Counted from the first letter of the stretch, positions 1,407 through 47,704 are shown. The stretch: DNA of 58,853 bases from Minisyncoccia bacterium (GCA_038249055.1 JBBRWS010000008.1:1-58853); one strand, 5' to 3'. Notes: generated by a model from the letters alone, not told the origin. Numbers and translations: made by a program.

Positions 1407-1691
1407 CAAAAGTGAAAAAAGAAGCAACGAGTAAGTTGCTTCTTTTTTTGATTCCCACTTTTGGCCCCGTGAGGGAATCGAAAAACGGAGGCTGTCGAGC
1501 TGAGTCGGGGTCGCGAGATTTTTCAGTAGAAAAATACTTGTGACCGATGAACCCAAACTGCTTTGCTTGCGTGAGGGAATCGAAAAGCTTTTCGTTCTCC
1601 GATACTCATTGGAGCGAAAAGTACCTGAACATGCGAATGAGTACATTCGCCTACTGGGTCGTGTTCGATAAGCGTACTTGCGGTCCCTCAC
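1407..1691 (+). mobile_element. tRNA-Lys-associated antisense/scaffold element (two scaffolds in tandem)
   Basis: Antisense to tRNA 3' end at 1464-1482 and 1573-1584; scaffold B 1483-1544; scaffold A 1585-1683; direct repeat TCCCTCAC 1684-1691. Confidence 0.75.
1634..1658 (-). repeat. 25-bp GTAG-type REP-like unit, copy 1
   Basis: Plus strand CGAATG-AGTA-CATTCG-CCTACTGGG. Confidence 0.85.
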
Positions 1692-1704
1692 CTTATTTAA
1701 CCTA

Positions 1705-1893
1705 TTAATAACTTAGTAACCCATCAATACAAGACGGGTCGTCTATATTTAATTTACTACAGTTATTTTTAATTTTTGTATCACTATAGATACTAGTACC
1801 TAATGATAATAAATACATAACTGTCACAAAAACTAAAACAATAAAAATTATTGTTACAACAAATATTTTACTGATTCCTTTATTATTATTCAT
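1705..1893 (-). CDS. small prepilin-like membrane-anchored protein
   Basis: MNNNKG|ISKIFVV plus hydrophobic helix; Cys pair near C-terminus. Confidence 0.55.
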   Translation of the reverse strand: MNNNKGISKIFVVTIIFIVLVFVTVMYLLSLGTSIYSDTKIKNNCSKLNIDDPSCIDGLLSY

Positions 1894-1919
1894 TAATTTT
1901 ACTTTATATTTAAAAATAT

Positions 1920-2507
1920 TTATTTATTATTTTCAGAAACTATCAAATCAAACATTTTTAAAACATCCGGATTATTTGAACGAGTTGTCACTGGAATATA
2001 AGAAAGATTTTTAGGATTAACTGGATTAGAAGGAGTGATATATTCACCAACCCATTTTTCTCCATTTTCTGATTTTAAACAATATGCTTTAGTCATTGAA
2101 TCTTTATCATTAGAAAATGATATATTCGAACAAGTATTTTGCCAACCAGCTATAAAAATAGAATCGTTTTCAGAAAAAGACTTTGGTGGTTTTAATAAAA
2201 TTCCTGTTTCATATCCTTCACTACCAATACTTCCTCCTTTTATACTTTCTACAGTCCAACAGTTTGGATACTTAACTGTATAAATTCCATTATAAGTTAA
2301 CCAAGTAGAACAATTATCTACTGCTATATTTTCATTAGAAATCAAATTTGTATTACCTTCTTCTAATAATTGAGATTCTTTTATTTTTACTTCTTTATCC
2401 ACTTTATTTGAATTCCTTCCCATCAAGTAAGCAGTACCACTCATTGCAAAAATACCAGCCACTACAGCTATAATCATCATCAATGAAAACCCTTTATTAT
2501 ATTTCAT
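1920..2507 (-). CDS. prepilin-like secreted protein, possible PsbP/DcrB-like C-terminal domain
   Basis: MKYNKG|FSLMMIIAVV class III-like signal; YTVKYPNCWTVE motif. Confidence 0.65.
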   Translation of the reverse strand: MKYNKGFSLMMIIAVVAGIFAMSGTAYLMGRNSNKVDKEVKIKESQLLEEGNTNLISNENIAVDNCSTWLTYNGIYTVKYPNCWTVESIKGGSIGSEGYETGILLKPPKSFSENDSIFIAGWQNTCSNISFSNDKDSMTKAYCLKSENGEKWVGEYITPSNPVNPKNLSYIPVTTRSNNPDVLKMFDLIVSENNK

Positions 2508-2536
2508 ATATATTCAATTAATGCTAATAAATAATA

Positions 2537-3211
2537 CTACTCCGCATATGAACACCTAAACCCTTCAAATTTTCTATCTGTTGGATTAGAAATATCAAGA
2601 GTTATTTTTCCTTCTATTTTAGCACCTCCCATTTTCATATACTCCTCAACCCTACTACAATTTTCTTTATTAGGAATATCATTTGTCTTACGCCAATAAT
2701 TTAATATATTTTCTTTTAATTCAAACAACCCGGCAGAATAATTATCGCTAAATAATTTTTCACGTTTATCTAAATCATAAATTATAAAACTTCGTGATGT
2801 CCCTGTTCCCTCATCTATAATTAAAAGATTATCTTTTATATAAGAAAAATGCTGAGCTCGATAACAATTAAGACCATCTGTACAACTATTTTTAATCTCA
2901 AAATCATCCTCTCCTACTTTATAGTCACAATCAATTTTTTGTTGTTTATTTATTTTAAATTTTACTAAAATATCATCTCCTGCATTACCAGATAAATCAG
3001 CACGAGTTATAATAAAATATTTAGACCTATCGTAACAATTATTTCCATTTAATGTAAAATCATTAAAAACTTCTTTACTGTTTAATTCTTTGATTTTATT
3101 TTCACGATTAATATTATTCTGCTTCAACCAATATACTCCCCCACTTACTACTAAAATACCTGCTATTACTGATGCAAGTGCTACCATAGCAAAACCTTTG
3201 TTGTATTTCAT
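2537..3211 (-). CDS. prepilin-like secreted protein
   Basis: MKYNKG|FAMVALASV plus TM helix; Cys-containing extracellular domain. Confidence 0.65.
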   Translation of the reverse strand: MKYNKGFAMVALASVIAGILVVSGGVYWLKQNNINRENKIKELNSKEVFNDFTLNGNNCYDRSKYFIITRADLSGNAGDDILVKFKINKQQKIDCDYKVGEDDFEIKNSCTDGLNCYRAQHFSYIKDNLLIIDEGTGTSRSFIIYDLDKREKLFSDNYSAGLFELKENILNYWRKTNDIPNKENCSRVEEYMKMGGAKIEGKITLDISNPTDRKFEGFRCSYAE

Positions 3212-3302
3212 AATTCAATAAATAAGATTAATAAATATAAACTCTTTAATTATATACCTTTACTATAATTTTTCATATTAAAATAATGAGTAGTGAAATC
3301 AA

Positions 3303-3336
3303 AATCCACCTATAACAAATTTGTTACAGGTGGATT
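3303..3336. terminator. terminator-like hairpin downstream of the Cys-rich microprotein
   Basis: AATCCACCTATAACA...TGTTACAGGTGGATT. Confidence 0.55.
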
Positions 3337-3367
3337 AATTTACCGAAATCATAAAGTATAATTCATC

Positions 3368-3454
3368 TTATTTAGTACCACATCCACACTCACAACTTCC
3401 ATCTGGTTTTGTGTGAACATGATCACATGTTGGACACTTTGTTTCTTCATCCAT
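3368..3454 (-). CDS. 28-aa Cys/His-rich metal-binding microprotein (not in ORF track)
   Basis: Manual translation MDEETKCPTCDHVHTKPDGSCECGCGTK*; CxxC-x-HxH and CxCxC motifs. Confidence 0.7.
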   Translation of the reverse strand: MDEETKCPTCDHVHTKPDGSCECGCGTK

Positions 3455-3564
3455 AGTAATTTTAAAGTTAATTTAAATAAATAATACCACGACCTTTGTC
3501 TCTATATAATGATATTATATTTAGATAAAAATGCAATATATTTTTTAATTACAAGTATTTTATA

Positions 3565-4560
3565 CTACTTTCTTAACAACTTTATTAACTCGTCCATTAA
3601 ATCTTTTATGGATTCATCGTTATAAAGTGAAAGTGTAAATACTGGTTTTTTAAGTTTTAGAAATTCTTTCTTTATTTTTTCAATCTTTTTAGTATCATCA
3701 ATAAGGTCTGTTTTGGTTAAAATAATTACCTCTTCTTTTTCTAAAAGAGTTTTATCATAGGCTCCCAATTCTTTACGAATATCTTTATAAACTTGCATTG
3801 GTTTTTTCAGTCCAGCTTCGCCATCCTGACAAGCATTTTCAAGTGATACTAAATGAGCTAACATTCTAGTTCTTTTAATATGTTTTAAAAACTTTATTCC
3901 GAGACCTTTACCGCTTGAAGCTCCTTCGATAAGACCTGGAATATCAGCGATAGTAAAACCGAAGAAATCTCCCAAATTTGGATCTAGCGTTGTAAATTGA
4001 TAACTACCTATCTTTGCAGATGCATTTGTTACTGCATTCAAAAGTGATGACTTGCCTGCATTAGGTAAACCAACTAAACCAACATCAGCAAAAAGTTCAA
4101 GTTCTATTTTAAAATTACCTTGTTCACCTATTTTACCTTTAGTAGCTTTTGTTGGGGTCGTATTAATAGAAGTCTTAAATTGCTCATTTCCCCATCCTCC
4201 AGGACCACCTTTGAGTAATAATTCTTTCTGTCCAACTTTATCAAGAGAAACTGTACCACCACTTTCCACGTTTGTGATAACAGAACCCACAGGAAATTCT
4301 ATTAATAAATCCTTTCCATCTTTACCATGACGACTTCCACCTGCTCCTTCTTCTCCATCATATCCTTCAAATTGTTTTTTGTGTTTATATTTAGAAAGTA
4401 GGTTTATATCATTAACAGCAACGGCATATATACTGCCGCCTCTTCCACCATCCCCACCATTTGGACCTCCTTTATCAATAAACTTTTCACGACGCCAACG
4501 AACAACGCCGTCTCCACCGCGACCTGCTTTTGCATAAAATTTTATTTCATCTATAAACAT
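3565..4560 (-). CDS. obgE: GTPase ObgE/CgtA (start moved to MFIDEIKF)
   Basis: Gly-rich Obg domain (GRGGDG...GGPNGGDGGRGG); G-motifs GLPNAGKS, FTT, DIPGL, TKTD. Confidence 0.96.
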   Translation of the reverse strand: MFIDEIKFYAKAGRGGDGVVRWRREKFIDKGGPNGGDGGRGGSIYAVAVNDINLLSKYKHKKQFEGYDGEEGAGGSRHGKDGKDLLIEFPVGSVITNVESGGTVSLDKVGQKELLLKGGPGGWGNEQFKTSINTTPTKATKGKIGEQGNFKIELELFADVGLVGLPNAGKSSLLNAVTNASAKIGSYQFTTLDPNLGDFFGFTIADIPGLIEGASSGKGLGIKFLKHIKRTRMLAHLVSLENACQDGEAGLKKPMQVYKDIRKELGAYDKTLLEKEEVIILTKTDLIDDTKKIEKIKKEFLKLKKPVFTLSLYNDESIKDLMDELIKLLRK

Positions 4561-4593
4561 ATAATATAATTGTTGATTAGGTTCTGTGTCTTG

Positions 4594-4678
4594 CTTCGCA
4601 TAAAATAAATTGATTTTCGCTGTCTCGTAGGGCCCCTCTGGGGTAAAGAGCAAGAAAATTAAATTATTTTGGGCGAAG
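4594..4678. repeat. long intergenic stem-loop with GC-rich core
   Basis: 25-bp imperfect inverted repeat CTTCGCATAAAATAAATTGATTTTC / GAAAATTAAATTATTTTGGGCGAAG. Confidence 0.65.
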
Positions 4679-4692
4679 TTATATAATACAAC

Positions 4693-5607
4693 TTACGCTA
4701 ATAATGCCTTTTCAGCAAGCTTTATGGCTCCTTCTTTTGATTTAACATGAATCAAATATCCTGACTTGTGACAAAAAATAACATCATCTACCCCGGTTAC
4801 TTCTCTTAATTTTGGATCCCCATTTGTAAATCCGCGCCAGCTTTCAGGAAATAATTTTCGGCTTTCCATAGTATCTGAGGTTACACTGACCGTCTCAACC
4901 TTCCACTCATCACTATGGCCACTTGGACAAATATAATATAGAGGTTCAGGAAGTCTAGGAAGTACATCTCTAACCAAAAATCTATGAAAAGGCTTACTTA
5001 ATATTATAATTCTTTTATCTTGTGCCATATTATAATCTTCCATTATAATTTTTTCTCCTTTAATATTTGACTGAGCAACTTTAATCTCTCTTTCCAATAA
5101 AGGAATAATTTTCTTTACTTCTTGTTCAAAAATTTTATCTACATTATTCACATCTTCATCCCAAGTAGGATAAAAAGCTTTAAAAATATTATTAACTGTA
5201 TACTGCTCTACATCTTTAAATTTGGACACTGTCAAATCCATACCATTATCTATAGCGTCTATTGGTTGAGCAAGTTTTTTATCTATCTCTAATGCAACTT
5301 CTTTGGAACCACAAATTTTTTCACCATAAGTTTTCCATATAAGACCGAAAGATGAATAAGGAATACCATTTTCTCTATTTCCAGCACCTCCTCTTTGATG
5401 ATGATCAAAAATATTATTAGTAGGATTATAATCTCCCCCTACATCGTATACATAGTCGGCCTTTTTAAAAACTTCTGAGTCACGAGTACGGATGATTTTA
5501 ATATTTCCATTATTTAATATTGAGAGCGCAGCTGTAGCAAAAAGATCGTCAGTATGAAATGCTCCGTTGTGTGTTACACATATTTTCTTTTTTTTAAAAA
5601 ATGACAT
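4693..5607 (-). CDS. MYG1 family metal-dependent hydrolase/exonuclease
   Basis: THNGAFHTDD, IIRTRD, DVGG, FDHHQ, FCHKSGY motifs. Confidence 0.92.
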   Translation of the reverse strand: MSFFKKKKICVTHNGAFHTDDLFATAALSILNNGNIKIIRTRDSEVFKKADYVYDVGGDYNPTNNIFDHHQRGGAGNRENGIPYSSFGLIWKTYGEKICGSKEVALEIDKKLAQPIDAIDNGMDLTVSKFKDVEQYTVNNIFKAFYPTWDEDVNNVDKIFEQEVKKIIPLLEREIKVAQSNIKGEKIIMEDYNMAQDKRIIILSKPFHRFLVRDVLPRLPEPLYYICPSGHSDEWKVETVSVTSDTMESRKLFPESWRGFTNGDPKLREVTGVDDVIFCHKSGYLIHVKSKEGAIKLAEKALLA

Positions 5608-5612
5608 ATATT

Positions 5613-6218
5613 TTATTCCTCTATTTCCTGTAATTCAAATAATTCTATCACAAATGCAATAATTTTTTCTAAAACGAAAAACATAATAAAGAATATAAGT
5701 ATTATACCAAGAAAATTACGAACGTCACGACTAATTGAAAGTGCAGTCAAACTAAAGAAATACCCTATTGAAAGCATCGCGATTGTCCAAGTTAAAAGAG
5801 AAGATGCTTCCGCTTTTATAAAAGTACGTAATTTTATTTTCTTATACCCGGCATAGATTAATGCAAACCAATATATTCCAAGTATCAAAAATCTAGATAA
5901 AAATATTGACCAAAAGGGTTTTTTTAGAAAGTTTGGTAAATAATATTTTATACGATTTTCCGTTTTAATTAAAAATCTTTTATCAGAATGATTATTTTGT
6001 AAATAGTATCCGATACCATAACCTACAATTGATTTTATGCCTCCTCCAGCAATTGTAGCTAAAAAAGCAAAATATAAATTAATAGAACCCAGATGCGCAA
6101 AAATTCCAGCAATAATTACCATTATCTCACCTTCAACCACTACCCCTAAAGTAATTAACAAATATACGATATTCGCATGTTCAGCAACAAATTGTTTAAT
6201 AAAACCGATAGTCAGCAT
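5613..6218 (-). CDS. DedA/VTT family membrane protein
   Basis: EGE motif, GYGIG, SRF, multi-TM. Confidence 0.8.
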   Translation of the reverse strand: MLTIGFIKQFVAEHANIVYLLITLGVVVEGEIMVIIAGIFAHLGSINLYFAFLATIAGGGIKSIVGYGIGYYLQNNHSDKRFLIKTENRIKYYLPNFLKKPFWSIFLSRFLILGIYWFALIYAGYKKIKLRTFIKAEASSLLTWTIAMLSIGYFFSLTALSISRDVRNFLGIILIFFIMFFVLEKIIAFVIELFELQEIEE

Positions 6219-6226
6219 AATATATA

Positions 6227-6568
6227 TTAATCAAAATGGAATATTTTACCCAATATCCAATTAATGACCGAAACGATTAATGCTCCCATAAAGGCTGCAT
6301 AAAATGTTGTGACATGAAAACCATCAATTAGAGTTCCTAAATACCAAAAAATAGCTCCATTAATAATGAGCGAAAATAAACCAAGAGTTATAAGATTGAT
6401 TGGAAGTGTTAGTATATTAATAATAGGTTTAATAAACATATTAATTAAAGTCAAACAAGCCCCCACAATAAGAGTAGTCCATATAGGGTCAACAGATATT
6501 CCAGAAATAATTTTCGTTGTAATAAAAACTGCGAGAGACAATATAATCCAACGTACAAAAATTTTCAT
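6227..6568 (-). CDS. YvlD/DUF360 'phage holin family' 4-TM protein
   Basis: IKPIINILTLPINLITLGLFSLIING signature. Confidence 0.85.
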   Translation of the reverse strand: MKIFVRWIILSLAVFITTKIISGISVDPIWTTLIVGACLTLINMFIKPIINILTLPINLITLGLFSLIINGAIFWYLGTLIDGFHVTTFYAAFMGALIVSVINWILGKIFHFD

Positions 6569-6687
6569 TATCCTAAACTTTTTATCAAAATAACATTATT
6601 GCTAAGATATATTATTAAATAAAAAGCAAATTAAATTTATAATAATTTTATTAAAAAAGTTTTAGTGAATTCATTCACCAAAATAAT

Positions 6688-7143
6688 TTAAATAAATAAT
6701 TTATCGACAGCTTCTTTAACCATACCACCGTCTGCTTTTCCTTTTAAATCCTTCATAAGAGATGCCATGAACATTCCTTTTTTTGTAACATCTTTAATTT
6801 CTAATTCATCATATTTAGTTTTTACAAATTTTTCTACTTCAGTAATATCCATTAATTTGGGTAAATATTCTTCTATAATGGCAAGTTGCTCTTTTTCTAC
6901 ATCAACTAAATCCATACGGCCACCTTTAGTAAATTGTTCAATGGAGTCTTTACGTTGTTTAGAAGAACGCGTAATAACAGCTAAGGCCTGCTCATCAGAT
7001 AACATATCTTGTGGTGTTTTTCCTGTGGCTACTAATTCATTTGTAAAAGCAGTTATAAAACCTCGCATAACTTCAAGTCGAACTGTATCACGAGCTTTCA
7101 TTGCTTCTTTTAAATTGTTTTTGATTTGTTCATGTAATGACAT
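6688..7143 (-). CDS. GatB/YqeY domain protein
   Basis: LKEAMKARD...KQRKDSIEQF..GGR.DL...E...YLP...LKGKADG. Confidence 0.92.
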   Translation of the reverse strand: MSLHEQIKNNLKEAMKARDTVRLEVMRGFITAFTNELVATGKTPQDMLSDEQALAVITRSSKQRKDSIEQFTKGGRMDLVDVEKEQLAIIEEYLPKLMDITEVEKFVKTKYDELEIKDVTKKGMFMASLMKDLKGKADGGMVKEAVDKLFI

Positions 7144-7194
7144 GCTTATATTGTATCATAAAGGTGATATTTAAGTAAAAAGATGTAGCCAGTT

Positions 7195-8229
7195 TTAATC
7201 AATTAAAGAATACAGGCTTAAATATTCATTCATTGATTTTTTATTTGAAATTATCGATAACATATGACGTGCTCTTATAGAACGAGTATCATCTGGTTGG
7301 TTCAAAAGATTTGCACATTTTCTATAGGTTAAGAGCCAAAGAGCTGAGCTTAATAAAGCATTATTAATTTTACCGTTTATTAATAAATAAAAATCTAGGG
7401 TTGATTTACGAATTGAATAAGGAATTCCCTCTGATGTTCCCCTTTCTGGTATTAAATAAAAAGCTACATCAAAATACTCTGGAATAAGTTCAGGAAATGG
7501 ATCGAACATTGTAGGATTTTCAGTCGCAAAAAAATGGCGAGGGCTAAAATCCATATTTCCAAGAAATGAAGAAGTTGTAGCATTTTCTTTCAAAATATTT
7601 TCCATATGAGAATTAGCAATATTTTTCCATTCTGTTTCAGGAAATTCTTTACATATAACATCAAATTTATCTGAATTTACAAATTCAAACTCTAAATAAT
7701 CTTTCAGTAAAAGAATAGGACCTACGAGCTGATTACCCTTCTCCACAAAAGGAAATCCAAATCCAACACCAGAAACCTTTTGCATTCTATTTAAAGCTGT
7801 ACCCATTATTTGTCCAACATCTTGTAAACTAATAGAATTATCATCTATCTTATTTTTAATAGTTAAACCATCAAAATAATCCATTATATAATAAGATGAT
7901 TGATCTTGATCTCCCTCTTCATAAATATTAGGAACAGTGACTTCTACTTCTTTCCATTTTTTAAGTGAAATGATTTCAGATTTTAGTATTTTATTTCTAC
8001 TACTTGTTTTTAATACATATCTTCTCCCGTCTAATAATATCAATTTAACAACAATAGAACTTACCCCCTCCTGATAAAACTCAACAGAAATATTATTAAC
8101 TTCTGACAAAAATGAGGATTGATTAATAACAAAACTGATATAATTATTAGCATTCAATCTGAATTCCTTGTCTTTAGATGAAGCCCAGTTTTGAACAGAA
8201 CAATTATTTAAGAAGGTAATATTTTTCAT
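7195..8229 (-). CDS. protein-kinase-like/APH-type phosphotransferase fold, divergent
   Basis: YVLKT ATP lysine, VTVPNIY, YYIMDY hinge, degenerate NMDFSPRH...FDP catalytic region. Confidence 0.6.
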   Translation of the reverse strand: MKNITFLNNCSVQNWASSKDKEFRLNANNYISFVINQSSFLSEVNNISVEFYQEGVSSIVVKLILLDGRRYVLKTSSRNKILKSEIISLKKWKEVEVTVPNIYEEGDQDQSSYYIMDYFDGLTIKNKIDDNSISLQDVGQIMGTALNRMQKVSGVGFGFPFVEKGNQLVGPILLLKDYLEFEFVNSDKFDVICKEFPETEWKNIANSHMENILKENATTSSFLGNMDFSPRHFFATENPTMFDPFPELIPEYFDVAFYLIPERGTSEGIPYSIRKSTLDFYLLINGKINNALLSSALWLLTYRKCANLLNQPDDTRSIRARHMLSIISNKKSMNEYLSLYSLID

Positions 8230-8319
8230 ATATGGATTATAGCAAATATGTACTAAATTTATTACTTGATTATATTTTATAAAGCAAAAGCAGATGTGTA
8301 AAAAAATGGGTTCATATAT

Positions 8320-8436
8320 AATAGTCTTCTCAAAGGGGCTTTGGAGCGCAGCGGTGCTAAAACTGAAAAAATTTTTAGCAAAAATTTTGATTTAGTAAAA
8401 TCACCTACTGGGTTGTACCCTTTGATAAGAACTATT
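8320..8436. mobile_element. MITE-like stem-loop element (ATAGTCTTMTCARAGGG ends), copy 1
   Basis: Terminal IR AATAGTCTTCTCAAAGGG / CCCTTTGATAAGAACTATT; same ends as 29164..29355. Confidence 0.65.
8388..8412 (-). repeat. 25-bp GTAG-type REP-like unit, copy 2
   Basis: Plus strand TGATTT-AGTA-AAATCA-CCTACTGGG. Confidence 0.85.
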
Positions 8437-8470
8437 TTGTTTGTGTTTATTAAGGTGATATTATATAAAT

Positions 8471-9199: not shown

Positions 9200-9224
9200 A
9201 ATTATGATACAATAAATATACGTG

Positions 9225-10370: not shown

Positions 10371-10376
10371 TTTTCA

Positions 10377-22062: not shown

Positions 22063-22104
22063 TATACATGATAATAAATAATTTTTAAAATTAGAGATAT
22101 GGAT

Positions 22105-22276
22105 TTGGGAACAGGGACCGCGAGTACGCCTTTCGGCTACCACGTAGCCAGGTACTTTTCGCTCTGGCTAATGCCAGAGAACGAAAAGTCTTTCGAATCC
22201 CTGACGCGACTGAAGCAGTTCAGTCGCTTTCCCAAGCAAATAAAAATAGCCCTTTAACAAGGGTTATTTTTATTTG
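22105..22276 (-). mobile_element. tRNA-Gln-associated antisense/scaffold element (cleanest copy)
   Basis: Hairpin, antisense acceptor, 25-nt hairpin (22204-22228), antisense T-arm (22192-22203), 74-nt scaffold A, 13-nt direct repeat of tRNA 3' end (22105-22117). Confidence 0.8.
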
Positions 22277-35992: not shown

Positions 35993-36013
35993 ATTTTTTC
36001 AAAGGTACAACTT

Positions 36014-36038
36014 TGATTGAGTACAATCACCTACTGGG
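36014..36038 (-). repeat. 25-bp GTAG-type REP-like unit, copy 3
   Basis: Plus strand TGATTG-AGTA-CAATCA-CCTACTGGG. Confidence 0.85.
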
Positions 36039-36142
36039 CCGAAGCCGGCTAGCCAGTGAGGTCAATTTGCTAATTGAAGGTTGGACCTCTAAAACATTTA
36101 CCTGTCGTTTCCAAAAAAATACCAATACGTTATAATAAAGAA

Positions 36143-38844: not shown

Positions 38845-39180
38845 CAAATAAGAAAAACGGCTTCAAGGCCGTTTTTCTTATTTGTGCGTCGGAGCAAGCC
38901 AACTGCTTGGCTTGCGTGTAGGATTTGAAAAGCTTTTCGTTACAAATTTTGATTTATCAAAATTTGTCGAAAAGGTGTACAGAATCTGTAAGATTCAAAA
39001 AGGCTACTGCCGGTCCTACCCAACACATGTTGTCGCTGAGTCGCCCAGTAGGTCATTTTACTAAATGAGGGTCGCGAGATTTTTCAGCAGAAAAATACTT
39101 GTGACCAAAAAATGTACTCATGGTCCTACCCCCCCAAAAAAAGTTTTAGTCGAGTTCCAAAAGCATATTCACGGTCCTAC
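38845..39180 (+). mobile_element. tRNA-Tyr-associated antisense/scaffold element with three right-end remnants
   Basis: Antisense 38885-38892 and 38918-38929 split by a 25-nt hairpin; TCCTAC(CC) repeats at 39014, 39124, 39175; scaffold-B hairpin 39069-39106. Confidence 0.8.
39044..39068 (+). repeat. 25-bp GTAG-type REP-like unit, copy 4 (opposite orientation)
   Basis: CCCAGTAGG-TCATTT-TACT-AAATGA. Confidence 0.85.
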
Positions 39181-39214
39181 TAAAAAGACCTTAATTTTAA
39201 TTAAGGTCTTTTTA
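39181..39214. terminator. terminator after clpB
   Basis: TAAAAAGACCTTAATT/AATTAAGGTCTTTTTA. Confidence 0.75.
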
Positions 39215-39218
39215 ATTA

Positions 39219-41906
39219 CTATTTTGAATTAACTTTACTATCTAATTTTATATTATGATTAATTTTCTTTTTCTTCATCTCAATAATAATCTCATTATCT
39301 TTCATAGTGGCGTAAACAGTATCCCCTTTCTTTACTCCCTTAGAAATCATAAACATAGCCACAGGGTTAAGAATCTTTTCTTGAATCAATCTACCTAAAG
39401 GTCGAGCACCATAGTGAGGATCATATCCTTCTTTTGCTAAATAAGACAAAGCTTCATCTTTTATATCAAGCTCAATTCCCTTACTTGCCAAACGTTCTCT
39501 AATTATTTTAATTTTAATATCAACAATATGACGAATAACTTCAGGAGAAAGAATATCAAAAACAATAATATCATCCAATCGATTCAAAAATTCTGGTCTA
39601 AAATGTTCTTTTAAAGCATCTAGTACCTTATCCTTAGTTTGAGAATATTCATCCATTTTTGTTTTATTACTAAATCCTAGTGATTCCATTTTTTGAATAA
39701 AATTAGAACCTAAATTTGAAGTGAGTACTATAATTGTATTTCTAAAATTAACTACACGACCTTTTGAGTCAGTAAGACGCCCTTCATCAAGAACTTGTAG
39801 TAGAACATTGAAAACCTCAGGGTGAGCTTTTTCTATTTCATCAAATAATATTACCGAGTATGGTCGATGACGAACTGCTTCTGTAAGATTACCTGATTCA
39901 TCATAGCCAACATAACCAGGAGGTGAACCGATAAGTTTTGAAATGCTGTGACGTTCTGTATATTCACTCATGTCTACTCGTATGAGTGCCTTATCATCAT
40001 TAAACATAAATTGAGCCAATGCTTTTGTAAGTTCTGTTTTTCCCACACCAGTTGGACCGAGAAAAATAAAAGAACCCATTGGTTTATTTGGATCTGAAAT
40101 TCCCGCTCTACTGCGACGAACAACATCTGAAATCTTTTTAATAGCAATATCTTGACCTACAACGCGTAAACGTAACTCATCTTCTATCTTTGATAATTTA
40201 TTTAATTCTTCCTCTAACATTTTTTCAAGAGGTACTCCTGTCCAACGAGAAACAACCGCGGCTATGTCTTCTGTGGTTATTTCTTCTTTTAGAATACGTC
40301 GTGATTTTTGAAGTTTTTTCAATCTAGACACTTTTGTTTCTAGATTACTTTGTAAATCAGGAATTCTTCCATAACGTATTTCTGCTGCACGCCCTAAGTC
40401 TGCACGCATCTCAGCATTTTCTGCTTCAAGGCGTAAAGACTCTAACTCTTTTTTTATTTCACGAATTTCTAGAACTGTTTCTTTTTCGTTTTTCCATTTA
40501 AGTTCCAATTCATGAGTTTTCTCTTTAAGATTCGCAATTTCTTTTTCTATATCTTTCATCCTAGCTTTTGCATCTTTATTTTGTGATGTTTTATTTCTTT
40601 CTATCTCTTTAGTTAATGCCTCTTTCTCAACTTCAAAACGCATAATTTTTCGATCAGATTCTTCTAAAACTTGTGGTTTATTTTCAAGTGCAAGACGTAA
40701 AGCAGAAGAAGCTTCATCTATAAGATCAACAGCTTTATCTGGTAAATATCTATTCGTGATATATCTTGCACTTAAATTGACAGCGGAAATAATAGCATCA
40801 TCGGTAATTCTAACACCATGAAAAAGTTCATACTTTTCTTTTAGACCACGTAAAATTGCAATTGCATCGTCAATACTTGGCTCATCTATATATATAGGTT
40901 GAAATCGTCTTGCAAGAGCTGGGTCTTTTTCAATATGTTTTTGATACTCTTTTAGTGTAGTTGCTCCTATTGCACGTAGTTCCCCACGAGCAAGTGCTGG
41001 TTTTAACATATTTGAAGCATCAAGAGAACCCTCTGATGAACCCGCTCCAACTATTGTATGAATTTCGTCTATAAATAAAATTATTTTTCCATTAGACTTC
41101 TCTATTTCTTTCATAATACCGCGCAATCTTTCTTCAAATTCTCCACGATATTTTGTACCAGATAATAACAATCCTAAATCAAGTGCTACTACTTCCTTAT
41201 CTTTTAAACTCTCAGGTACATCATTTTTTGCTATTCGAATAGCAAGAGCTTCGGCAACTGCCGTCTTTCCAGTTCCAGCCTCTCCTATTAAAATAGGATT
41301 ATTTTTGGTACGTCGAGATAATATTTGCATCATTCTCATTATTTCTGTATCACGTCCAATAACTGGATCAAGTTTATCTTCCCTAGCTAGCGTTGTAAGA
41401 TTACGAGTAAACTTAACAAGAAGTTTTGGTTTTTTAGAAGAATTTGATTCTGTAATATTTTCATTTCTAAGCAAATTAAGAACATTTAAAACTTTTTCTT
41501 TATTGATTTTAAAACGCCCCAATAATTCACGAGCTTCACCTGCAACTTCAAGTAAAGAAACAAATAGATGCTCCGTAGAAACAAATTCGTCCTTTAAAGT
41601 TTGAGCTACTTTGCTAGAATTTTCAATAATTTGAGCGAGATCTGGAGTAAGATAAATCTGATATGAAGGTGAAAGTGTATTACGATTTTCAGGAGATTCT
41701 GTCATTTCTATCAAGTTATCTGTCAGCAACATCGTATCAACTTCCATCTTATCTAAAATAGAAATAACCAAAGAATCTTCCTGTATTAACAGAGCGGTTA
41801 ATAAATGTAAAGAATTTACATGATTTTGACCACGCTCAATAGCTAGCTCATGAGCCTTACGAATTACCTCTTTTGCTTTTGTTGTAAAATTATTAAATGG
41901 GGGCAT
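39219..41906 (-). CDS. clpB: ATP-dependent chaperone ClpB
   Basis: Two AAA modules ([16 protein letters not shown]) and long coiled-coil M-domain with AAEIRYG. Confidence 0.93.
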
Positions 41907-41955
41907 AAATATAATTACTAATTTATAATTACTAATTTAAAAAACTAATAGTTTT

Positions 41956-42555
41956 TTATTGTGTATTACTTACAGCGTCCGTGTTAGTAGTTACTTCTGG
42001 AGATTTTACTACTGATGATTTTTCTGTAATTTTTAATACAGTAAAACCATTATTAAACTTTTTTAAAATTGAAACATTAAAATCAGTTTTATCTAATACT
42101 ACTTTATATGAATCTATATCATTAATCAAATTTGAATCTACTAATATTAGACCAACATCTGATATTATAATACCTTGCCCAATGGGACTAGGTACTGTAT
42201 TTGTAATATTTATATTTTCAACTGTTGGGTTTACTTCTGTGGGGGTTTCTACTTTTGCATTATTAAGAAAAATATTTACTAATGTATCACTATTACTAAG
42301 TGTTAACACTGCATTCTCCTTCTCACTAGCTTTATTATCGATAGTATTGTCTTGAGTATAAACAGGGGCCGGAGCTTGAATAGTAGTAACTTTTTCAATT
42401 GTTCTTTGAATAACATTATTTATTGTCTGCGGAACACTTTTTGGCATCTGATTCATGAGTGAAACAGTCACAATACCAGTGGCAATCGAAACTACAAAAG
42501 TAATCAACAATGTCAATAAAATAAGCTGTTTTTTGTCTAATTCTTTAATATCCAT
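41956..42555 (-). CDS. membrane-anchored protein with truncated, degenerate trypsin/HtrA-like segment
   Basis: TM LITFVVSIATGIVTVSL; GQGIIISDVGLILV without the catalytic His. Confidence 0.6.
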   Translation of the reverse strand: MDIKELDKKQLILLTLLITFVVSIATGIVTVSLMNQMPKSVPQTINNVIQRTIEKVTTIQAPAPVYTQDNTIDNKASEKENAVLTLSNSDTLVNIFLNNAKVETPTEVNPTVENINITNTVPSPIGQGIIISDVGLILVDSNLINDIDSYKVVLDKTDFNVSILKKFNNGFTVLKITEKSSVVKSPEVTTNTDAVSNTQ

Positions 42556-42594
42556 ATGCCTATTATATCATAAAATATGGTTAAATAATAAATT

Positions 42595-43818
42595 TTATTT
42601 CCATTTTTTATATTTTTCTAATATTTTATTTATAGATTTAAGTAAATAATCTATATCACTTTTTTTCGTACCTCTTCCTAATGATATTCGGAGTGAACCA
42701 TCTTCCTCTTTCCCCTTTCTTGAACAAACCTTTCTAATCGCATCAATTACATAAGACTTGCTACTATCATCACTTTTGCAAGCACTTTTTTCAGAAACAA
42801 AAATACCCATTGCTGACAATTCTATAACAAGAAGTTCACTTGAAATTCCTAAAATAGAAATATTTATATTATTCGGTAACCTTTTATTTTTATCACCATT
42901 TAAAATTATTTTATATCCGGATATTCCAGAAAGAGCTAACAATTTTTCTATCCCATAATCTCGAATTTTAATAAGTCTCTCTGACTCTTTTTGTTTAATT
43001 TTATTTACTACTTCAAACATAAAAGAAAATCCTGATATCAAGGACACACTTTCCGTCCCGGAACGTAAACCAAATTCTTGGCCTCCTCCAGAATAAATAG
43101 GGCAAAGTTCAATATTTCTTTTTTTATACAAAACACCCACTCCTTTAGGACCATAAATTTTAGAGCTATTAAAAGTCATTAAGTCTACCCCGAGCTTTTC
43201 TATATTGTCTGTGTATAAATAATTCATTGCCTGACATGCATCAGTATGGAAAAGTGGGAGAGATAGATTTTTTAATTTTTTAAAATGTCTTATTATTTTT
43301 GCAATTTCTTGTATTGGTTGTATTGTTCCAATTTCATTATTGGCATACATAACTGAAACCAAAACTGTATTTTCTTTTAAAGAATCTTCTAATTCTTCAA
43401 GATTTATGATCCCATTTTTATCTACTGAAATATAGGTAACTTCTGCTTCTCCCAAACTCTCAAGTATTCTACAATTTTCAAGCACTGCAGGATGTTCTAT
43501 CTTTGTTGTTAAAATATGCGGAATCTTATCTTTATTTTTAATCCGCCAACCTCTTATTACTCCCAATATAGCGAGTGCATCACTTTCTGTTCCACTCCCA
43601 GTAAAAATAATCTCATCATTATGAGCATTAATCAATTTTGCAATTTTACCCCTACAATCTTCTATTATATTTCTAACTTTTACCCCATCTGCATGAATTG
43701 CGCTTGGATTGGCAAAAAATCGTCTTTCGAAGAAATCTACTATTTTTGCAGTTTTACTGTCTATCGGAGTTGCTCCTGCATAGTCAAAATATATATTTTT
43801 TTTGGGTAATAATTTCAT
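42595..43818 (-). CDS. iscS: cysteine desulfurase (IscS/NifS family)
   Basis: YFDYAGATP, ANPS, NNEIG, HTDACQ, SSKIYGPKG, RSGTE, SAC. Confidence 0.9.
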   Translation of the reverse strand: MKLLPKKNIYFDYAGATPIDSKTAKIVDFFERRFFANPSAIHADGVKVRNIIEDCRGKIAKLINAHNDEIIFTGSGTESDALAILGVIRGWRIKNKDKIPHILTTKIEHPAVLENCRILESLGEAEVTYISVDKNGIINLEELEDSLKENTVLVSVMYANNEIGTIQPIQEIAKIIRHFKKLKNLSLPLFHTDACQAMNYLYTDNIEKLGVDLMTFNSSKIYGPKGVGVLYKKRNIELCPIYSGGGQEFGLRSGTESVSLISGFSFMFEVVNKIKQKESERLIKIRDYGIEKLLALSGISGYKIILNGDKNKRLPNNINISILGISSELLVIELSAMGIFVSEKSACKSDDSSKSYVIDAIRKVCSRKGKEEDGSLRISLGRGTKKSDIDYLLKSINKILEKYKKWK

Positions 43819-43963
43819 AAGTTATATGTATAACTATAACACCCTGTGATGAATTTTAAAAACTTTTAAGTTCCATAAATTTATGTCTAAATTCTTTTAA
43901 AATCTAGTACATAATAAAACAGCATTGTAAAAAAAGCCTTATTGGTATATACTCTTTTTAGTT

Positions 43964-44410
43964 ATGAATACTACTATCTTAATTTATATAATTTCCGCGA
44001 TTGTTATTATTATTTTATTATGGATTATGTCTATAGAGCTTAGATTTAAAAAATTCTTTGCTGGAACTAAAGCACGTAATCTAGAAGAAATGATTATATT
44101 AGTTGGTGAAAAAATAAATAAAGTAGAAGAAACCCAAAATAAAATTGATAAACACTTAGTTATAATTGATAATCGACTTAACAAATCAATAAGAAAAATA
44201 GAAACAATACGTTTCAACCCATTTGTAGACGGTGGCGGAAATCAAAGTTTTGCAATTGCTCTAATGAATGACGAAAGTAACGGAGTAGTAATATCCAGTT
44301 TGTATGCTCGTGACCGTATGAGTATCTTTGCAAAGCCAATAATAAACGGTAAATCAGAATTTGAATTATCTGCTGAAGAAAAAGACGTTCTTGAAAAAGC
44401 AATAAATTAA
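43964..44410 (+). CDS. DUF4446-like membrane-anchored protein
   Basis: RFNPF..GGNQSFAIAL...GVVISSLYAR...FAKP...LS.EE. Confidence 0.8.
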   Translation: MNTTILIYIISAIVIIILLWIMSIELRFKKFFAGTKARNLEEMIILVGEKINKVEETQNKIDKHLVIIDNRLNKSIRKIETIRFNPFVDGGGNQSFAIALMNDESNGVVISSLYARDRMSIFAKPIINGKSEFELSAEEKDVLEKAIN

Positions 44411-44444
44411 CGAAATCGAGTCAACTAGAAAGAAATAATTATTT

Positions 44445-45953
44445 ATGATAGAAGAAATTAAAAAAATTGAAAAAGTTCGCCCACCCGTAGTTGTTGTTAT
44501 GGGGCATGTTGATCATGGTAAATCAACACTTCTTGACTATATACGAAAATCAAACATTGTAGATAGTGAGGCAGGTGGAATCACTCAGCACATTAGTGCT
44601 TATGAAGTTGTAAGCAAAGATGATAAAAATGAAAATAGGCTTATAACTTTTTTAGATACTCCTGGACATGAAGCTTTTTCAAAAATGCGTACTCGTGGAG
44701 CCCAAGCTGCAGATATTGCTATTCTTGTTGTCTCCGCAGAAGATAGTGTTAAGGCTCAAACTCTTGAAGCTTATAACACGATTATAGAAAGTAAAATACC
44801 ATACATTGTTGCTATAAATAAAATAGACAGACCGAACGCAAATATTGAAAAAACTAAAATGGATTTAGTTGAAAAAGGTATATATCTAGAGGGATTAGGT
44901 GGTGATATACCATTTGTACCTATATCCGCTAAAGTTGGGACAGGAATTGATGAACTTCTAAGTATGATTATTTTAGTTGCTGATATTCAAGGTTTTACTG
45001 GAAATCCATCAATAAATGCTACTGGGGTCATTATTGAAGCAAAGCGTGATCCACAACGTGGAGTTTCCGCAACATGTATTATTAAAAATGGCACACTTCG
45101 TTCTGGAATGTTCGTAGCATGCGGAGAAGCCATAGTTACAACTCGTATTTTAGAAAATTTTTTAGGTAAGCCCATAAAAGAAGCAACTTTCTCATCCCCC
45201 ATTAAGTTGGTTGGATTTGAATCAATGCCAGAAGTCGGTAGTATTTTTCAATCATTTAAAACAAAAAAAGAAGCTGAAAATTATATAAATAATATAAAGG
45301 ATGAAAAATTAAATAATAAAATACAAGACAAACAATCTACTTCTACTGGAAAAATTATTCCAATAATAATAAAAACAGATGTTATGGGAACAATAGAAGC
45401 CATTGAAAAAGAAATAAGTAAATTAAATACAGATGAAATTTCTTTCAAAATAATAAGCAAAGGCGTTGGAGCTATAAATGAATCCGACTTAAAAATGGGA
45501 AATGTGAATAAAGAAAGTATAATTGTTGGGTTTAATACAAAAATAGATAGTGGAGCAAGAGACCTCAATGAATCTTTAAAAGTCAAAGTAGAAACATTTG
45601 ATATTATTTATAAACTTATTGATTGGCTAAAAGAATTAGTAGAAGCTCGTCGTCCAAGAATAGAAACCGTAGAAGTAATAGGAACTCTAAAGGTATTAAA
45701 AACATTCGGTTCAACTAAAGGTAAGCATGTAGTTGGAGGTAAAGTTACATCTGGTAAAATAACCTTCGGTAGTAATATTCGTATAATTCGCCGTGATTTT
45801 GAAATTGGAACTGGAAAAATTGTTGAATTGCAGATGAATAAAATTAAAGCAAAAGAAGTACAAGAAGGAAATGATTGTGGCCTTCAAGTAGAGACCAAAT
45901 TAGATATTGCCCCAGGTGATGTTTTAGAAGCTTTTGAAATTTCTATTAAATAA
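44445..45953 (+). CDS. infB: translation initiation factor IF-2, lacking the N-terminal domain
   Basis: RPPVVVVMGHVDHGKSTLLD, GGITQHI, DTPGHEAF, NKID. Confidence 0.97.
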   Translation: MIEEIKKIEKVRPPVVVVMGHVDHGKSTLLDYIRKSNIVDSEAGGITQHISAYEVVSKDDKNENRLITFLDTPGHEAFSKMRTRGAQAADIAILVVSAEDSVKAQTLEAYNTIIESKIPYIVAINKIDRPNANIEKTKMDLVEKGIYLEGLGGDIPFVPISAKVGTGIDELLSMIILVADIQGFTGNPSINATGVIIEAKRDPQRGVSATCIIKNGTLRSGMFVACGEAIVTTRILENFLGKPIKEATFSSPIKLVGFESMPEVGSIFQSFKTKKEAENYINNIKDEKLNNKIQDKQSTSTGKIIPIIIKTDVMGTIEAIEKEISKLNTDEISFKIISKGVGAINESDLKMGNVNKESIIVGFNTKIDSGARDLNESLKVKVETFDIIYKLIDWLKELVEARRPRIETVEVIGTLKVLKTFGSTKGKHVVGGKVTSGKITFGSNIRIIRRDFEIGTGKIVELQMNKIKAKEVQEGNDCGLQVETKLDIAPGDVLEAFEISIK

Positions 45954-45962
45954 TATTTTTAT

Positions 45963-46289
45963 ATGTCTATATTCCGAGGAGAAAAAATAACAAATAATAT
46001 AAAAGAACTAGCAGCACTTTATATAGAACGTGAGGCTGGTCCTACATCCCTCATTACTGTAACCAGAGTTGTTCTATCCCCTGACGGCAAAAAAGCCACA
46101 ATAATGGTTAGCGTTTTGCCACGTGAAAAAGAAAAAGCGGCCTATGGATTTATAAAGAGAAATTTAGGTGAATTAAGAAAACACATAACTAAAAATTTAA
46201 GAATAAATCCTATTCCATTTTTAGATGTTGAAATAGATGAAGGAGAAAAAAATCGCCAAAAAATTGACGATTTATTAATGAAAGGTTAG
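45963..46289 (+). CDS. rbfA: ribosome-binding factor A
   Basis: Directly after infB; LITVTRV.LSPD...IPFL...D pattern. Confidence 0.88.
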   Translation: MSIFRGEKITNNIKELAALYIEREAGPTSLITVTRVVLSPDGKKATIMVSVLPREKEKAAYGFIKRNLGELRKHITKNLRINPIPFLDVEIDEGEKNRQKIDDLLMKG

Positions 46290-46315
46290 GATAGAAAAGT
46301 GGAATAAAATAATAA

Positions 46316-46387
46316 GGCCTGGTAGCCAAGTGGTAAGGCAGAGATCTGCAAAATCTCTATGCGGCGGTTCAATTCCGCCCCAGGCCT
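46316..46387 (+). tRNA. tRNA-Cys(GCA); no antisense element downstream
   Basis: Acceptor GGCCTGG/CCAGGCC, loop CTGCAAA, T-loop TTCAATT, discriminator T. Confidence 0.95.
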
Positions 46388-46452
46388 CCTTAAAGTAAAT
46401 TTCTTAAAATTTACTAGGGTGAATAATTTTAATAAAATTATTTTAGCCAAAA

Positions 46453-46490
46453 AAATAAAGCAAAACCGATATTATGGTTTTGCTTTATTT
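46453..46490. terminator. bidirectional terminator
   Basis: AAATAAAGCAAAACC-N8-GGTTTTGCTTTATTT. Confidence 0.8.
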
Positions 46491-46510
46491 AAATTTAGAC
46501 TAACTTAATG

Positions 46511-46831
46511 TTATTCCTCTGATAAATTCTGATCTTCAGACATCTTCATCAAAACAAGAACGACCTTGGTTAAGTCTTGGAAATTCTGGAATTCAGGAAA
46601 ATCACAATCATCTTCATCGATGAATACTGATACTTCATTACCACAAACTTCTTGGCAAAATTCTTCCTGATTATAAACATCCAAAACAGCTAATACCCAA
46701 GCATTTTGACAACCACCAAGATTGTCTAAAGAGAAACAATCATTTACTGAGTGACCAACAGAACATAAATTAACAAGATCACCCATTTGAAGAGTATTTC
46801 CTTCTAACTGAGAACTAGTTTTATAATTCAT
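46511..46831 (-). CDS. hypothetical acidic Cys-containing protein
   Basis: Open ORF with ATG, ending at a terminator. Confidence 0.55.
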   Translation of the reverse strand: MNYKTSSQLEGNTLQMGDLVNLCSVGHSVNDCFSLDNLGGCQNAWVLAVLDVYNQEEFCQEVCGNEVSVFIDEDDCDFPEFQNFQDLTKVVLVLMKMSEDQNLSEE

Positions 46832-46938
46832 ATCTACAAGTTTTAAAATCGTTTAGATTAATACTATCATAATTATATTTTTATGCAACAATATTCACTA
46901 TAAGTCAAAAAAATAAGCGGACGTAAAGTCCGCGAATT

Positions 46939-47244
46939 TTATTTTTCACATAATTTCATAATCTCTTTTACTACTCTTGTCAGGGCGGCAAAATCATTTA
47001 TTTTTGAAATAGGAAATTGATCTGGAGCAGAATGATCTCCAGGTGGTAGATACCCATAACATTTTGAACAAAAATCATATTTATTTAGAATTCCAAGCAC
47101 AATAAATATTTTGTCATTTCTATCACCATAAAAAGAAACGAGAGAATTATTTAATACTTTATATTTAATTCCCCAAAATTCAACAATATCTTTTTCTTTA
47201 ACATCATCAAACTCTAATTGCTTTAATTTTTTATAAAAAGCCAT
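46939..47244 (-). CDS. hypothetical protein
   Basis: Open ORF; FCSKCYGY motif; FP...DF.ALTRVV tail loosely like the neighbour's. Confidence 0.55.
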   Translation of the reverse strand: MAFYKKLKQLEFDDVKEKDIVEFWGIKYKVLNNSLVSFYGDRNDKIFIVLGILNKYDFCSKCYGYLPPGDHSAPDQFPISKINDFAALTRVVKEIMKLCEK

Positions 47245-47358
47245 ATTTTAAAATATTAAATTTACACCATTTTTTTTATTAAACTATAAATTTATACGGA
47301 AGTCAATGATGACTAGTATTTATAATAAATTTTTGCTAATATGTTCTAGTGCTTAAAT

Positions 47359-47440
47359 GCCCAGGTGGCGGAATTGGTATACGCGCTAGTCTTAGGAACT
47401 AGTGGAGCAATCCTTGGAGGTTCAAGTCCTCTCCTGGGCA
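47359..47440 (+). tRNA. tRNA-Leu(TAG), no encoded CCA
   Basis: Acceptor GCCCAGG/CCTGGGC, loop CTTAGGA, long variable arm, T-loop TTCAAGT. Confidence 0.95.
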
Positions 47441-47596
47441 CAAATACAAAAAATCCCTTTGCTTTTGCAAAAGGATTTTTTGTATTTGTGCCCAGAGCAA
47501 GCCATTGGTACGGCTTGCGTGAGAGGACTTGAAAAGGTTGAATATATGGTTTAGAAATTAATATTTCTAAACCATATGAAACCTGTACCGACTCTG

Positions 47597-47621
47597 CGAA
47601 TGAGTGCATTCGCCTACTGGG
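47597..47621 (-). repeat. 25-bp GTAG-type REP-like unit, copy 5
   Basis: Plus strand CGAATG-AGTG-CATTCG-CCTACTGGG. Confidence 0.85.
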
Positions 47622-47679
47622 TAAGAGTCAAGACATGTACTCATGGTCCTCTCCTGGGCTTAATTGATGCTCAAAAGCG

Positions 47680-47704
47680 CGAATGAGTACATTCGCCTAC
47701 TGGG
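47680..47704 (-). repeat. 25-bp GTAG-type REP-like unit, copy 6
   Basis: Plus strand CGAATG-AGTA-CATTCG-CCTACTGGG, identical to copy 1. Confidence 0.85.

Follow-up and report, generated by a model that had tools for sequence, protein, structure and literature searches.

The question raised by this locus is what kind of sequence the 25-nucleotide (nt) hairpin is that recurs in a contig of a small Minisyncoccia genome, and how it came to lie inside other repeated elements. The contig, hereafter the window, is a stretch of 58,853 nt (JBBRWS010000008.1:1-58853; positions are given in its coordinates). It is contig C8 of GCA_038249055.1, a genome of 975 kb in 18 contigs with 31% G+C, which we call G000. 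In its six window copies the hairpin, hereafter the unit, has a stem of 6 bp, a loop of AGTA or AGTG and, as its tail, CCTACTGGG. The original prediction took it for a relative of the repetitive extragenic palindromic (REP) elements, one that inserts precisely into other hairpin elements. We found the unit to be real: a mobile hairpin of the REP type, very small and inserted without duplication, which has expanded in G000. All six copies lie in the sequence where they had been predicted, one of them reversed.

1634-1658, plus strand: unit copy 1, stem CGAATG/CATTCG, loop AGTA, tail CCTACTGGG; located in the second-hairpin loop of a tRNA-Lys(ctt)-linked element.
8388-8412, plus strand: unit copy 2, stem TGATTT/AAATCA; splits an A/T palindrome and adjoins the end of a 68-nt repeat at 8320-8387.
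36014-36038, plus strand: unit copy 3, stem TGATTG/CAATCA; occupies a REP doublet's left half, the composite folding with z = -5.0.
39044-39068, minus strand: unit copy 4, stem TCATTT/AAATGA; in a tRNA-Tyr-linked element, module GAGTCG^GGGTCGCGAG.
47597-47621, plus strand: unit copy 5, stem CGAATG/CATTCG, loop AGTG; in the hairpin loop TG^TAA of a tRNA-Leu(tag)-linked element.
47680-47704, plus strand: unit copy 6, stem CGAATG/CATTCG; inserted into a partial second element at GCG^TACTCGC.

The six copies have four different stems, and every stem pairs, as had been predicted. On the opposite strand all main-tail copies read CCCA-GTAG-G-hairpin, that is 5'-CCCAGTAGG-hairpin, in which GTAG is unpaired and one base away from the 6-bp stem. 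The REP-like layout proposed for this strand is therefore present. With one mismatch or less, the tail 9-mer occurs 10 times in the window against a mean of 3.63 in shuffled sequences, and none of 100 shuffles reached 10.

The motif was then counted in the whole genome. There are 38 exact copies of CCTACTGGG in G000, and 34 of them follow a hairpin with at least five of six pairs; the remaining four are in a tRNA-His gene, two tRNA-His-linked elements and one unrelated place. A sister family with the tail CCTCACGGG, whose opposite strand reads CCC-GTGA-GG, has 14 copies, and the whole family, including four rarer tails, amounts to 56 units. Among the 2016 perfect hairpins of G000 with a 6-bp stem and a 4-nt loop, the commonest 9-mers that follow are CCTACTGGG (31) and CCTCACGGG (13). 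When the 56 units were taken together with 61 units listed from other genomes, 28 distinct stems were found among the 117. Compensatory changes occur at stem pairs 1, 2, 4 and 6; for example, pair 2 is GC in 59 and CG in 53, and pair 6 is TA in 32, GC in 22 and CG in 53. The folds of the units as single-stranded DNA are the hairpin itself (z of -2.4 to -3.1). The units are mostly extragenic: only 2 of the 56 in G000 and 4 of the 61 listed elsewhere are inside an ATG-started open reading frame (ORF) of at least 120 amino acids. Pairing of the loop AGTA with the TACT of the tail was considered and rejected, since loops and tail of the sister family do not covary; a loop of 4 nt would probably be unable to pair fully within one strand.

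Both tails have a counterpart in tRNA genes. CCTACTGGG is the antisense of the T-stem/acceptor-stem junction of tRNA-His (G000 contig C10:36478-36550), and CCTCACGGG reproduces, in sense, the corresponding junction of tRNA-Lys(ctt) (window 1395-1403). Since these orientations disagree, a tRNA origin of the tails was not adopted. The likeness may be a coincidence or a trace of origin from tRNA-linked elements.

The elements that carry units in the window, together with a unit-free comparator and a further unit that the original prediction did not contain, are as follows.

1408-1692, plus strand: tRNA-Lys-linked modular element, host of copy 1.
38846-39131, plus strand: tRNA-Tyr-linked modular element, host of copy 4.
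47442-47711, plus strand: tRNA-Leu(tag)-linked modular element and part of a second one, which host copies 5 and 6.
22100-22275, minus strand: tRNA-Gln(ttg)-linked element, unit-free, the empty comparator.
36001-36091, no strand assigned: host REP doublet with arms of about TAGAGGT(A/C)CAACCT and AGGTTGGACCTCTA and a 14-nt centre; carries copy 3 and the sister unit.
36053-36077, minus strand: sister unit, stem TCAATT/AATTGA, loop AGCA, tail CCTCACTGG; in the right half of the same doublet, with unit-free look-alike sites at 2 mismatches.

Precise presence and absence of the 25-nt unit had been claimed, and three kinds of evidence agree on it. The first is the length of the palindrome doublets, which have arms like TAGAGGTCCAACCT and AGGTTGGACCTCTA around a short centre and number 37 in G000. 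In the 27 doublets without a unit the centre is 13-14 nt in 19; in the seven with one unit it is 38-40 nt in six and 50 nt in one; and in the three with two units it is 62-65 nt. The centre lengths rise in steps of 25 nt. The second is a search for empty sites, in which the 14 nt on either side of each unit were joined and the resulting 28-nt query was run against G000. Unit-free look-alikes with at most five mismatches in 28 nt were found for 31 of the 56 units, of which four matches due to adjacent units and one due to low-complexity sequence were set aside. After this, 17 of the 56 units have a unit-free paralogous site at three mismatches or fewer, and one unit has three such sites without any mismatch. 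The third is the alignment of the tRNA-Lys-linked element with the unit-free Gln element, which are colinear except for a single internal gap of 25 nt, copy 1; the unit-free look-alike of this copy has 3 mismatches.

Other copies in the window behave in the same way, as had been proposed for each. The Tyr element without copy 4 equals positions 1500-1517 of the Lys element, and the Leu sequence GACTCTG^TAAGAGTC parallels the Tyr sequence GAATCTGTAAGATTC. Removal of copy 6 gives GCG^TACTCGC, the conserved end of tRNA-linked elements, and removal of copy 2 restores the A/T palindrome. The 68-nt repeat beside copy 2 ends exactly at the left border of this copy; copies of the repeat, 75-85% identical, are found in the relatives G005 and G022 and stop at the same position. 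The gene order upstream of this region in G020 and G022 is unlike that in the window. No target duplication was seen at any junction, in agreement with the original prediction. An inverted counterpart of the tail is absent from the opposite end of the unit, so that with respect to both features the unit differs from a miniature inverted-repeat transposable element.

Units within a subfamily are 92-100% identical, whereas their flanks (25 + 25 nt) are 29-41% identical, except in one subfamily with flanks at 65%. That units are far more alike than their flanks argues for recent insertion, not deletion, and identical stems inside diverged hosts suggest a recent spread within G000. In each host family that was examined, empty copies are more numerous than filled ones (27 versus 10 in the doublets), and the unit is found in at least five unrelated host contexts. 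It is highly probable that the unit is a mobile element inserted exactly and without duplication. It ranks among the smallest mobile DNA elements seen.

In a loose motif test, the hosts of the 56 units were tRNA-linked elements for 26, the palindrome family for 16-17 and other places for 13; among the last, three are in variant palindromes and four share yet another repeat. Units recur at the same positions of the tRNA-linked elements and in fixed orientation: in the loop TG^TAA, at GCG^TACTCGC, in the loop CTGC^TT and at GTCG^GGGTCGCGAG. The loop that holds copy 5 is filled also in the Gln(ctg) and Lys elements of G000 and, among the matches listed, in two loci of other genomes (L093 and L116); the site of copy 4 has its unit-free match at 1500-1517 and is filled in two more of the loci listed (L035 and L047). 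In these four loci the units have other stems. The claim that the unit inserts into other hairpin elements stands insofar as most copies are inside other repeats, but hairpin loops are not a general target. Flanks forming a stem of at least 5 bp were found for 9 of 48 units in G000 and 9 of the 61 listed elsewhere, against 8.1% and 6.0% of random positions, an enrichment of only about two-fold.

The junctions follow a loose rule. Among the 61 units listed elsewhere, T comes next in 56; the base directly before the unit is C or T in 57, and the one before that in 54. In G000 the next base is T in 27 and C in 20 of 48 units, that is in 47 of 48, and the preceding base is never A. Since most units start with T, insertion rebuilds the target, which explains the tandem pairs; pairs of units are separate insertions with different stems and tails. 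When these counts are viewed on the GTAG strand, both borders of the unit come after a purine, mostly A, a pattern expected from one cleavage preference.

How, then, might the unit move? Our preferred reading, to which we give an even chance when it is taken whole, is that of a non-autonomous element of the REP type moved as a single strand by an HUH enzyme acting in trans, with a RAYT-like protein (RAYT, REP-associated tyrosine transposase) as the best candidate. The unit would be very small, non-autonomous REP-type mobile DNA that recently multiplied in G000, a member of Paceibacterota, to about 50 copies. Each insertion would be exact, without target duplication, at a junction of two pyrimidines followed by T or C (YY^T/C), and most would fall inside other repeats, namely the RAYT-associated palindromes and the tRNA-linked elements. 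The unit would be cut and rejoined as single-stranded DNA by an HUH tyrosine enzyme supplied from elsewhere, for which the single intact RAYT-like protein of G000 is the best candidate. Single-strand cutting and joining by HUH enzymes, as in IS200/IS605, has been proposed for REPs in passages of PMC8266576 and PMC6006769. Such a mechanism fits the exact gain without duplication, the GTAG hairpin, the loose target beside a fixed base and the lack of a linked gene. The unit, its covarying stem, the precise presence or absence of 25 nt, the preference for certain sites, the burst in G000 and the patchy occurrence in Patescibacteria are observed; the single-strand mechanism and the identity of the enzyme are inferred.

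One intact gene of the HUH Y1 (RAYT-like) type, the kind of gene that the original prediction associated with the unit, is indeed present in G000. It is an ORF of 220 amino acids on the reverse strand at C12:13527-14186. The protein matches Pfam PF01797 (Y1_Tnp) at 29 bits, above the cut-off of 23. Residues H82 and H84 of the HUH motif and Y142, N144 and N146 of the Y-x-N-x-N motif are invariant in 12 orthologues. The predicted structure (mean pLDDT 72.4) has as its top match 4er8_A (E 9.3e-4, probability 1.00), the E. coli RAYT bound to a REP hairpin, followed by the IS608 and ISDra2 transposases. The host doublet of copy 3 belongs to the same palindrome family as the sequences around this gene, and 10 of the 37 doublets of this family carry units, at AACCT^C. 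At one locus among the matches listed (L108, a Paceibacterota metagenome-assembled genome), RAYT palindromes on both sides each hold a unit, nested in them and not replacing them. The closest orthologue, with 77% identity, sits in G022, the only relative with several units. A second RAYT-like gene in G000 (C3:24904-25248, reverse strand) is truncated with two stop codons, and it is surrounded by palindromes of the GATAGGG type, like those of other members of the genus.

The gene and its palindromes form an ordinary RAYT arrangement, and the repeat that belongs to it is not the 25-nt unit. In G022 AATCGGTCCAACCGATT palindromes follow the gene, where the contig starts 60 bases before the gene so that the other side is barely sampled. 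Most other relatives (11 homologues, L011-L021) have palindromes beside the gene, on one side or on both, either with a GATAG(A/G)GG-type foot or of another kind. For the six Saccharibacteria homologues, a nearby palindrome of their own was seen in five cases and no palindrome in the sixth. In G000 the 'double-foot' palindrome that flanks the gene (locus C12:13395-14398, L001/L010) is GGTAGAGGTCCAACCTCTACC.

Several observations weigh against the preferred reading. Around the gene in G000 there are five palindromes of the TAGAGGTCCAACCTCTA type and no unit, and the unit is beside no RAYT gene examined, unlike the REPs that are cognate to a RAYT. Known REPs usually follow their own RAYT lineage. 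The palindromes likewise change with the RAYT gene between relatives, whereas the unit keeps one loop and one tail in distant classes, although it is present in well below 1% of genomes in an even draw; the search pattern used across classes fixed loop and tail, so that variants lie outside this sample. RAYT homologues occur in 32 of 40 relatives and units in two, and no unit was found in 30 of the 32 relatives with a homologue. One Saccharibacteria genome with two units gave no match to PF01797 or to RAYT. The 220-amino-acid protein scored 20.8 bits against the NCBIfam model REP_Tyr_transpos, which has a cut-off of 80, and no RAYT came up when PDB sequences were searched with the protein or with a profile of 12 sequences. 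Targeting of the lagging strand has weak or no support from orientation: in G000 the tail strand is the same as the majority gene strand for 22 units and opposite for 16, and among the listed units elsewhere the GTAG strand is the same as the gene strand for 31 and opposite for 18, with 12 ambiguous. Junctions at YY^T also differ from the CT or CA dinucleotides given for the studied RAYTs in passages of PMC8266576 (Corneloup et al. 2021). Finally, assembled (Logan) contigs from two runs of one study, one of them the likely source, revealed no 25-nt gap or joint at four window units; such contigs break at repeats and cannot reveal rare variants, and this result carries no weight either way.

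Of the proposal that the unit is handled by a RAYT, the geometry of GTAG and hairpin and the intact HUH gene have held up; that the unit is the enzyme's own repeat, flanking its gene, has not, since the palindromes beside the gene differ from it in G000, in its relatives and in Saccharibacteria. Because the unit is never directly beside the RAYT-like gene or its relatives, the action of the RAYT-like protein on it is an inference, and binding or cleavage by this protein is putative. The RAYT reading is nevertheless plausible. Genes near the units did not offer another partner: a RAYT homologue was found in 1 of 114 listed loci, no protein cluster occurred in more than 4 of the 57 listed unit-bearing loci, and the six GIY-YIG matches in G000 had no evident tie to units.

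The unit shares many properties with known systems. Passages of Di Nocera et al. 2013 (PMC3733652) describe GTAG REPs with subfamilies, single and paired arrangements and nesting in palindromes. Like these, the unit is an extragenic hairpin within the range of 20-40 bp, repeated in the genome, with unpaired GTAG at one end. It also has subfamilies with compensatory stems, single, inverted-pair and tandem-pair arrangements, a RAYT-like HUH gene in the genome and no target duplication. The same source, in the parts cited here, reports families in which single units predominate and GTAG REPs inside small palindromes with hundreds of empty targets, such as GTAG-23 of T. roseum, and the unit likewise lies inside small palindromes with many empty copies. 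Given these cases, the original view that nested single REPs are unusual was overstated. In passages of Quentin et al. 2018 (PMC6006769), short REPs have the tag 1-2 nt from the stem and a foot plus stem of 10-13 nt; in the unit GTAG is 1 nt from a 6-bp stem. Unlike the doublets (REPINs) of the model outlined in passages of Bertels and Rainey 2011 (PMC3116915), what is inserted here is one hairpin of 25 nt. The 'peel and paste' elements of the IS200/IS605 type and their miniatures resemble the unit in hairpin-defined ends, duplication-free insertion guided by a short target and an HUH Y1 fold in the genome. In contrast to them, one hairpin is the whole element, no transposase gene is linked to it, the target is a loose YY^T and not a fixed tetra- or pentanucleotide, and there is no clear strand bias. 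A search of the literature pairing Patescibacteria or the Candidate Phyla Radiation with REP or RAYT found nothing relevant, while the supplementary family lists of PMC3733652 and PMC6006769 might include Patescibacteria.

A still closer parallel may exist in cyanobacteria. The small dispersed repeats (SDRs) 4 to 6 of Nostocaceae are said to be 21-27 nt long, to form hairpins and to be inserted exactly and without duplication, often nested in other repeats. We know of no enzyme for the SDRs or for the unit. The unit is of another phylum and another sequence, and it is scattered over several classes of Patescibacteria; passages of PMC5861425 state that SDRs were found only in Nostocaceae and report the HIP1 palindrome as an insertion site of SDR5. 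Judged by this description and by passages that cite it, the SDR elements of Nostoc appear to be the closest known phenomenon.

The tRNA-linked elements themselves suggest another source of mobility. They lie behind more than half of the 42 tRNA genes of G000, some in tandem. In order they are composed of a terminator-like hairpin, a hairpin with a AACTGCTT loop, the T-arm copied in antisense, GAAAAGCTTTTCGTT-hairpin-CGAAAAG, a second hairpin, N3-TACT-N3'-GG and the tRNA 3' end copied in sense. Their 3' end has a 5-bp hairpin with an AGTAG or TGTAA loop, a short linker, the mini-hairpin N3-TACT-N3', GG and then T, and the mini-hairpin stems covary (GCG/CGC, ATG/CAT, GTG/CAC, GGC/GCC). The unit is made of an AGTA-loop hairpin and, as its 3' end, CC-TACT-GG-G, after which comes T. 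Because of this likeness, the machinery of the tRNA-linked elements could be responsible for the unit, which would be a miniature of their 3' end; we consider that the unit moves by such other machinery possible, but doubtful. It accords with the residence of about half of the units (26 of 56) in such elements, with the fixed position and orientation at each site type, with the filling of the same sites elsewhere by units with other stems, and with the RAYT-flanking palindromes never being the unit. However, the end motif occurs in 22 of 40 relatives, most of which have no unit, and most listed units elsewhere are outside tRNA-linked elements. No enzyme recurs near the units, for which the largest cluster covers 4 of 57 listed loci, and we know of none for the tRNA-linked elements. 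The likeness of the two ends is, moreover, our reading of short motifs and not a statistical result.

The distribution of the unit bears on these readings. In 40 relatives of the same order the loop-plus-tail pattern was found only in G022 (three copies) and G020 (one, with a decayed stem), compared with 26 AGTA-type copies in G000, and a pattern of the hairpin plus CC was found in G000 and G022 only. A metagenome scan with the protein encoded at 42595-43818 of the window yielded 72 loci (best identity 76%), and in 726 kb of these related loci there were two adjacent units, both in L147, the closest locus. There (3730-3780) the tandem units, with tails CCTCACGGG and CCTACTGGG, are beside a half palindrome and a small GIY-YIG-like ORF; none of these is present in the orthologous spacer of the window, 42556-42594. 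When 400 genomes were drawn evenly from the phylum, five had one match each and a backwards control pattern gave three, so the matches in this draw are at chance level. A scan of one genome per species gave at least 114 loci, and 58 of 115 listed matches have a paired stem, where we estimate that about two would be expected by chance. Of the 57 listed loci with paired stems, 42 are from Patescibacteria (Nomurabacteria, Paceibacterota, Parcubacteria, Kaiserbacteria, Yonathbacteria, Minisyncoccia and six Saccharibacteria), and one is an archaeal metagenome-assembled genome with an imperfect stem. Five Saccharibacteria genomes have 1-4 copies each. Phages were considered as a vector and rejected: among 70 pattern matches in viral contigs two had a hairpin, and these were one sequence in two contigs, followed by G. 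The viral matches serve as a chance control (2 of 70 with a hairpin).

The unit is rare, scattered over distant classes, nearly unchanged, and expanded in G000 only; this combination suggests horizontal spread. Among 25 genomes of the genus compared (the sizes of the others being rounded), G000 is one of the largest and the richest in repeats. Against the 40 relatives it has 15 tRNA-element end motifs versus at most 7, 22 palindrome matches versus 0, and 26 AGTA-type units versus at most 3. A tentative extension, which we think rather unlikely in its full form, is that the unit is a parasitic 25-nt 'nano-transposon' that moves horizontally among distant Patescibacteria. It would have no enzyme gene of its own and would borrow the enzymes of the resident repeat systems into which it lands, the RAYT palindromes and the tRNA-linked elements. 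The burst in G000 would have followed when its GTAG tag matched a RAYT whose palindromes have a GTAG foot.

The unit could instead be mainly functional, a hairpin that binds a protein or acts in mRNA leaders, which selection maintains and which recombination or gene conversion, not transposition, copies from site to site. The constancy of loop and tail in distant Patescibacteria classes, with a covarying stem, would suit a function, and so would the position of some units before genes. On the GTAG strand, 14 of 61 listed units of other genomes have an ORF start at most 20 nt past the hairpin, compared with 2 of 61 in the other orientation. Nine such ORFs, starting 3-17 nt downstream, were compared with Pfam; one had no match and eight were recognisable as housekeeping ORFs, encoding FtsZ, ArgRS, ribosomal protein L18, GrpE, class II aldolase, YqeY, glyoxalase and DUF4147/MOFRL. 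At the loci listed (L042, L048, L069, L079, L081, L102, L115 and L090) the unit is 3-10 nt before the start of ftsZ, the DUF4147/MOFRL gene, the glyoxalase gene, fba, yqeY, argS, rplR and grpE; the sense strand is the GTAG strand in each case. Many start-adjacent units read GTAGGTGAT, and no other Shine-Dalgarno-like sequence was evident before the start-adjacent ORFs that were checked. By comparison with the 16S 3' end, GTAGGTGAT may resemble a Shine-Dalgarno sequence. This placement may mean that insertions are tolerated there in very compact genomes, or that the unit has a role in mRNA leaders. A mainly functional unit is nonetheless improbable. The downstream genes are unrelated to each other, only 2 of 34 units in G000 are near a start codon while most are nested in repeats, and the copy number varies from 0 in most genomes to about 50 in G000. 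Gene conversion fails to explain identical 25-nt blocks in unrelated, diverged hosts without flank homology, and Rfam searches of the window and of the surroundings of copies 5 and 6 gave no family at the curated score. That the unit is original to the host repeats and was lost by exact deletion from the unit-free copies is hardly credible, although replication slippage can remove hairpins, because empty copies outnumber filled ones, the host contexts are several and unrelated, the units are far more alike than their hosts, and no flanking direct repeats are present to drive exact slippage.

Debate continues over the spread of REP-type repeats, and over whether a lone hairpin is able to move at all. 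The unit provides an unusually clean natural record in this respect, since exact 25-nt additions are seen in dozens of repeat copies that are otherwise unit-free. A tiny genome with one intact candidate enzyme and a simple YY^T rule makes a direct biochemical test practical. The finding adds to the picture of repeat-richness in some ultra-small bacteria, and the occurrence of the same 25-mer in scattered, distant Patescibacteria hints at horizontal movement of an element that is too small to encode anything.

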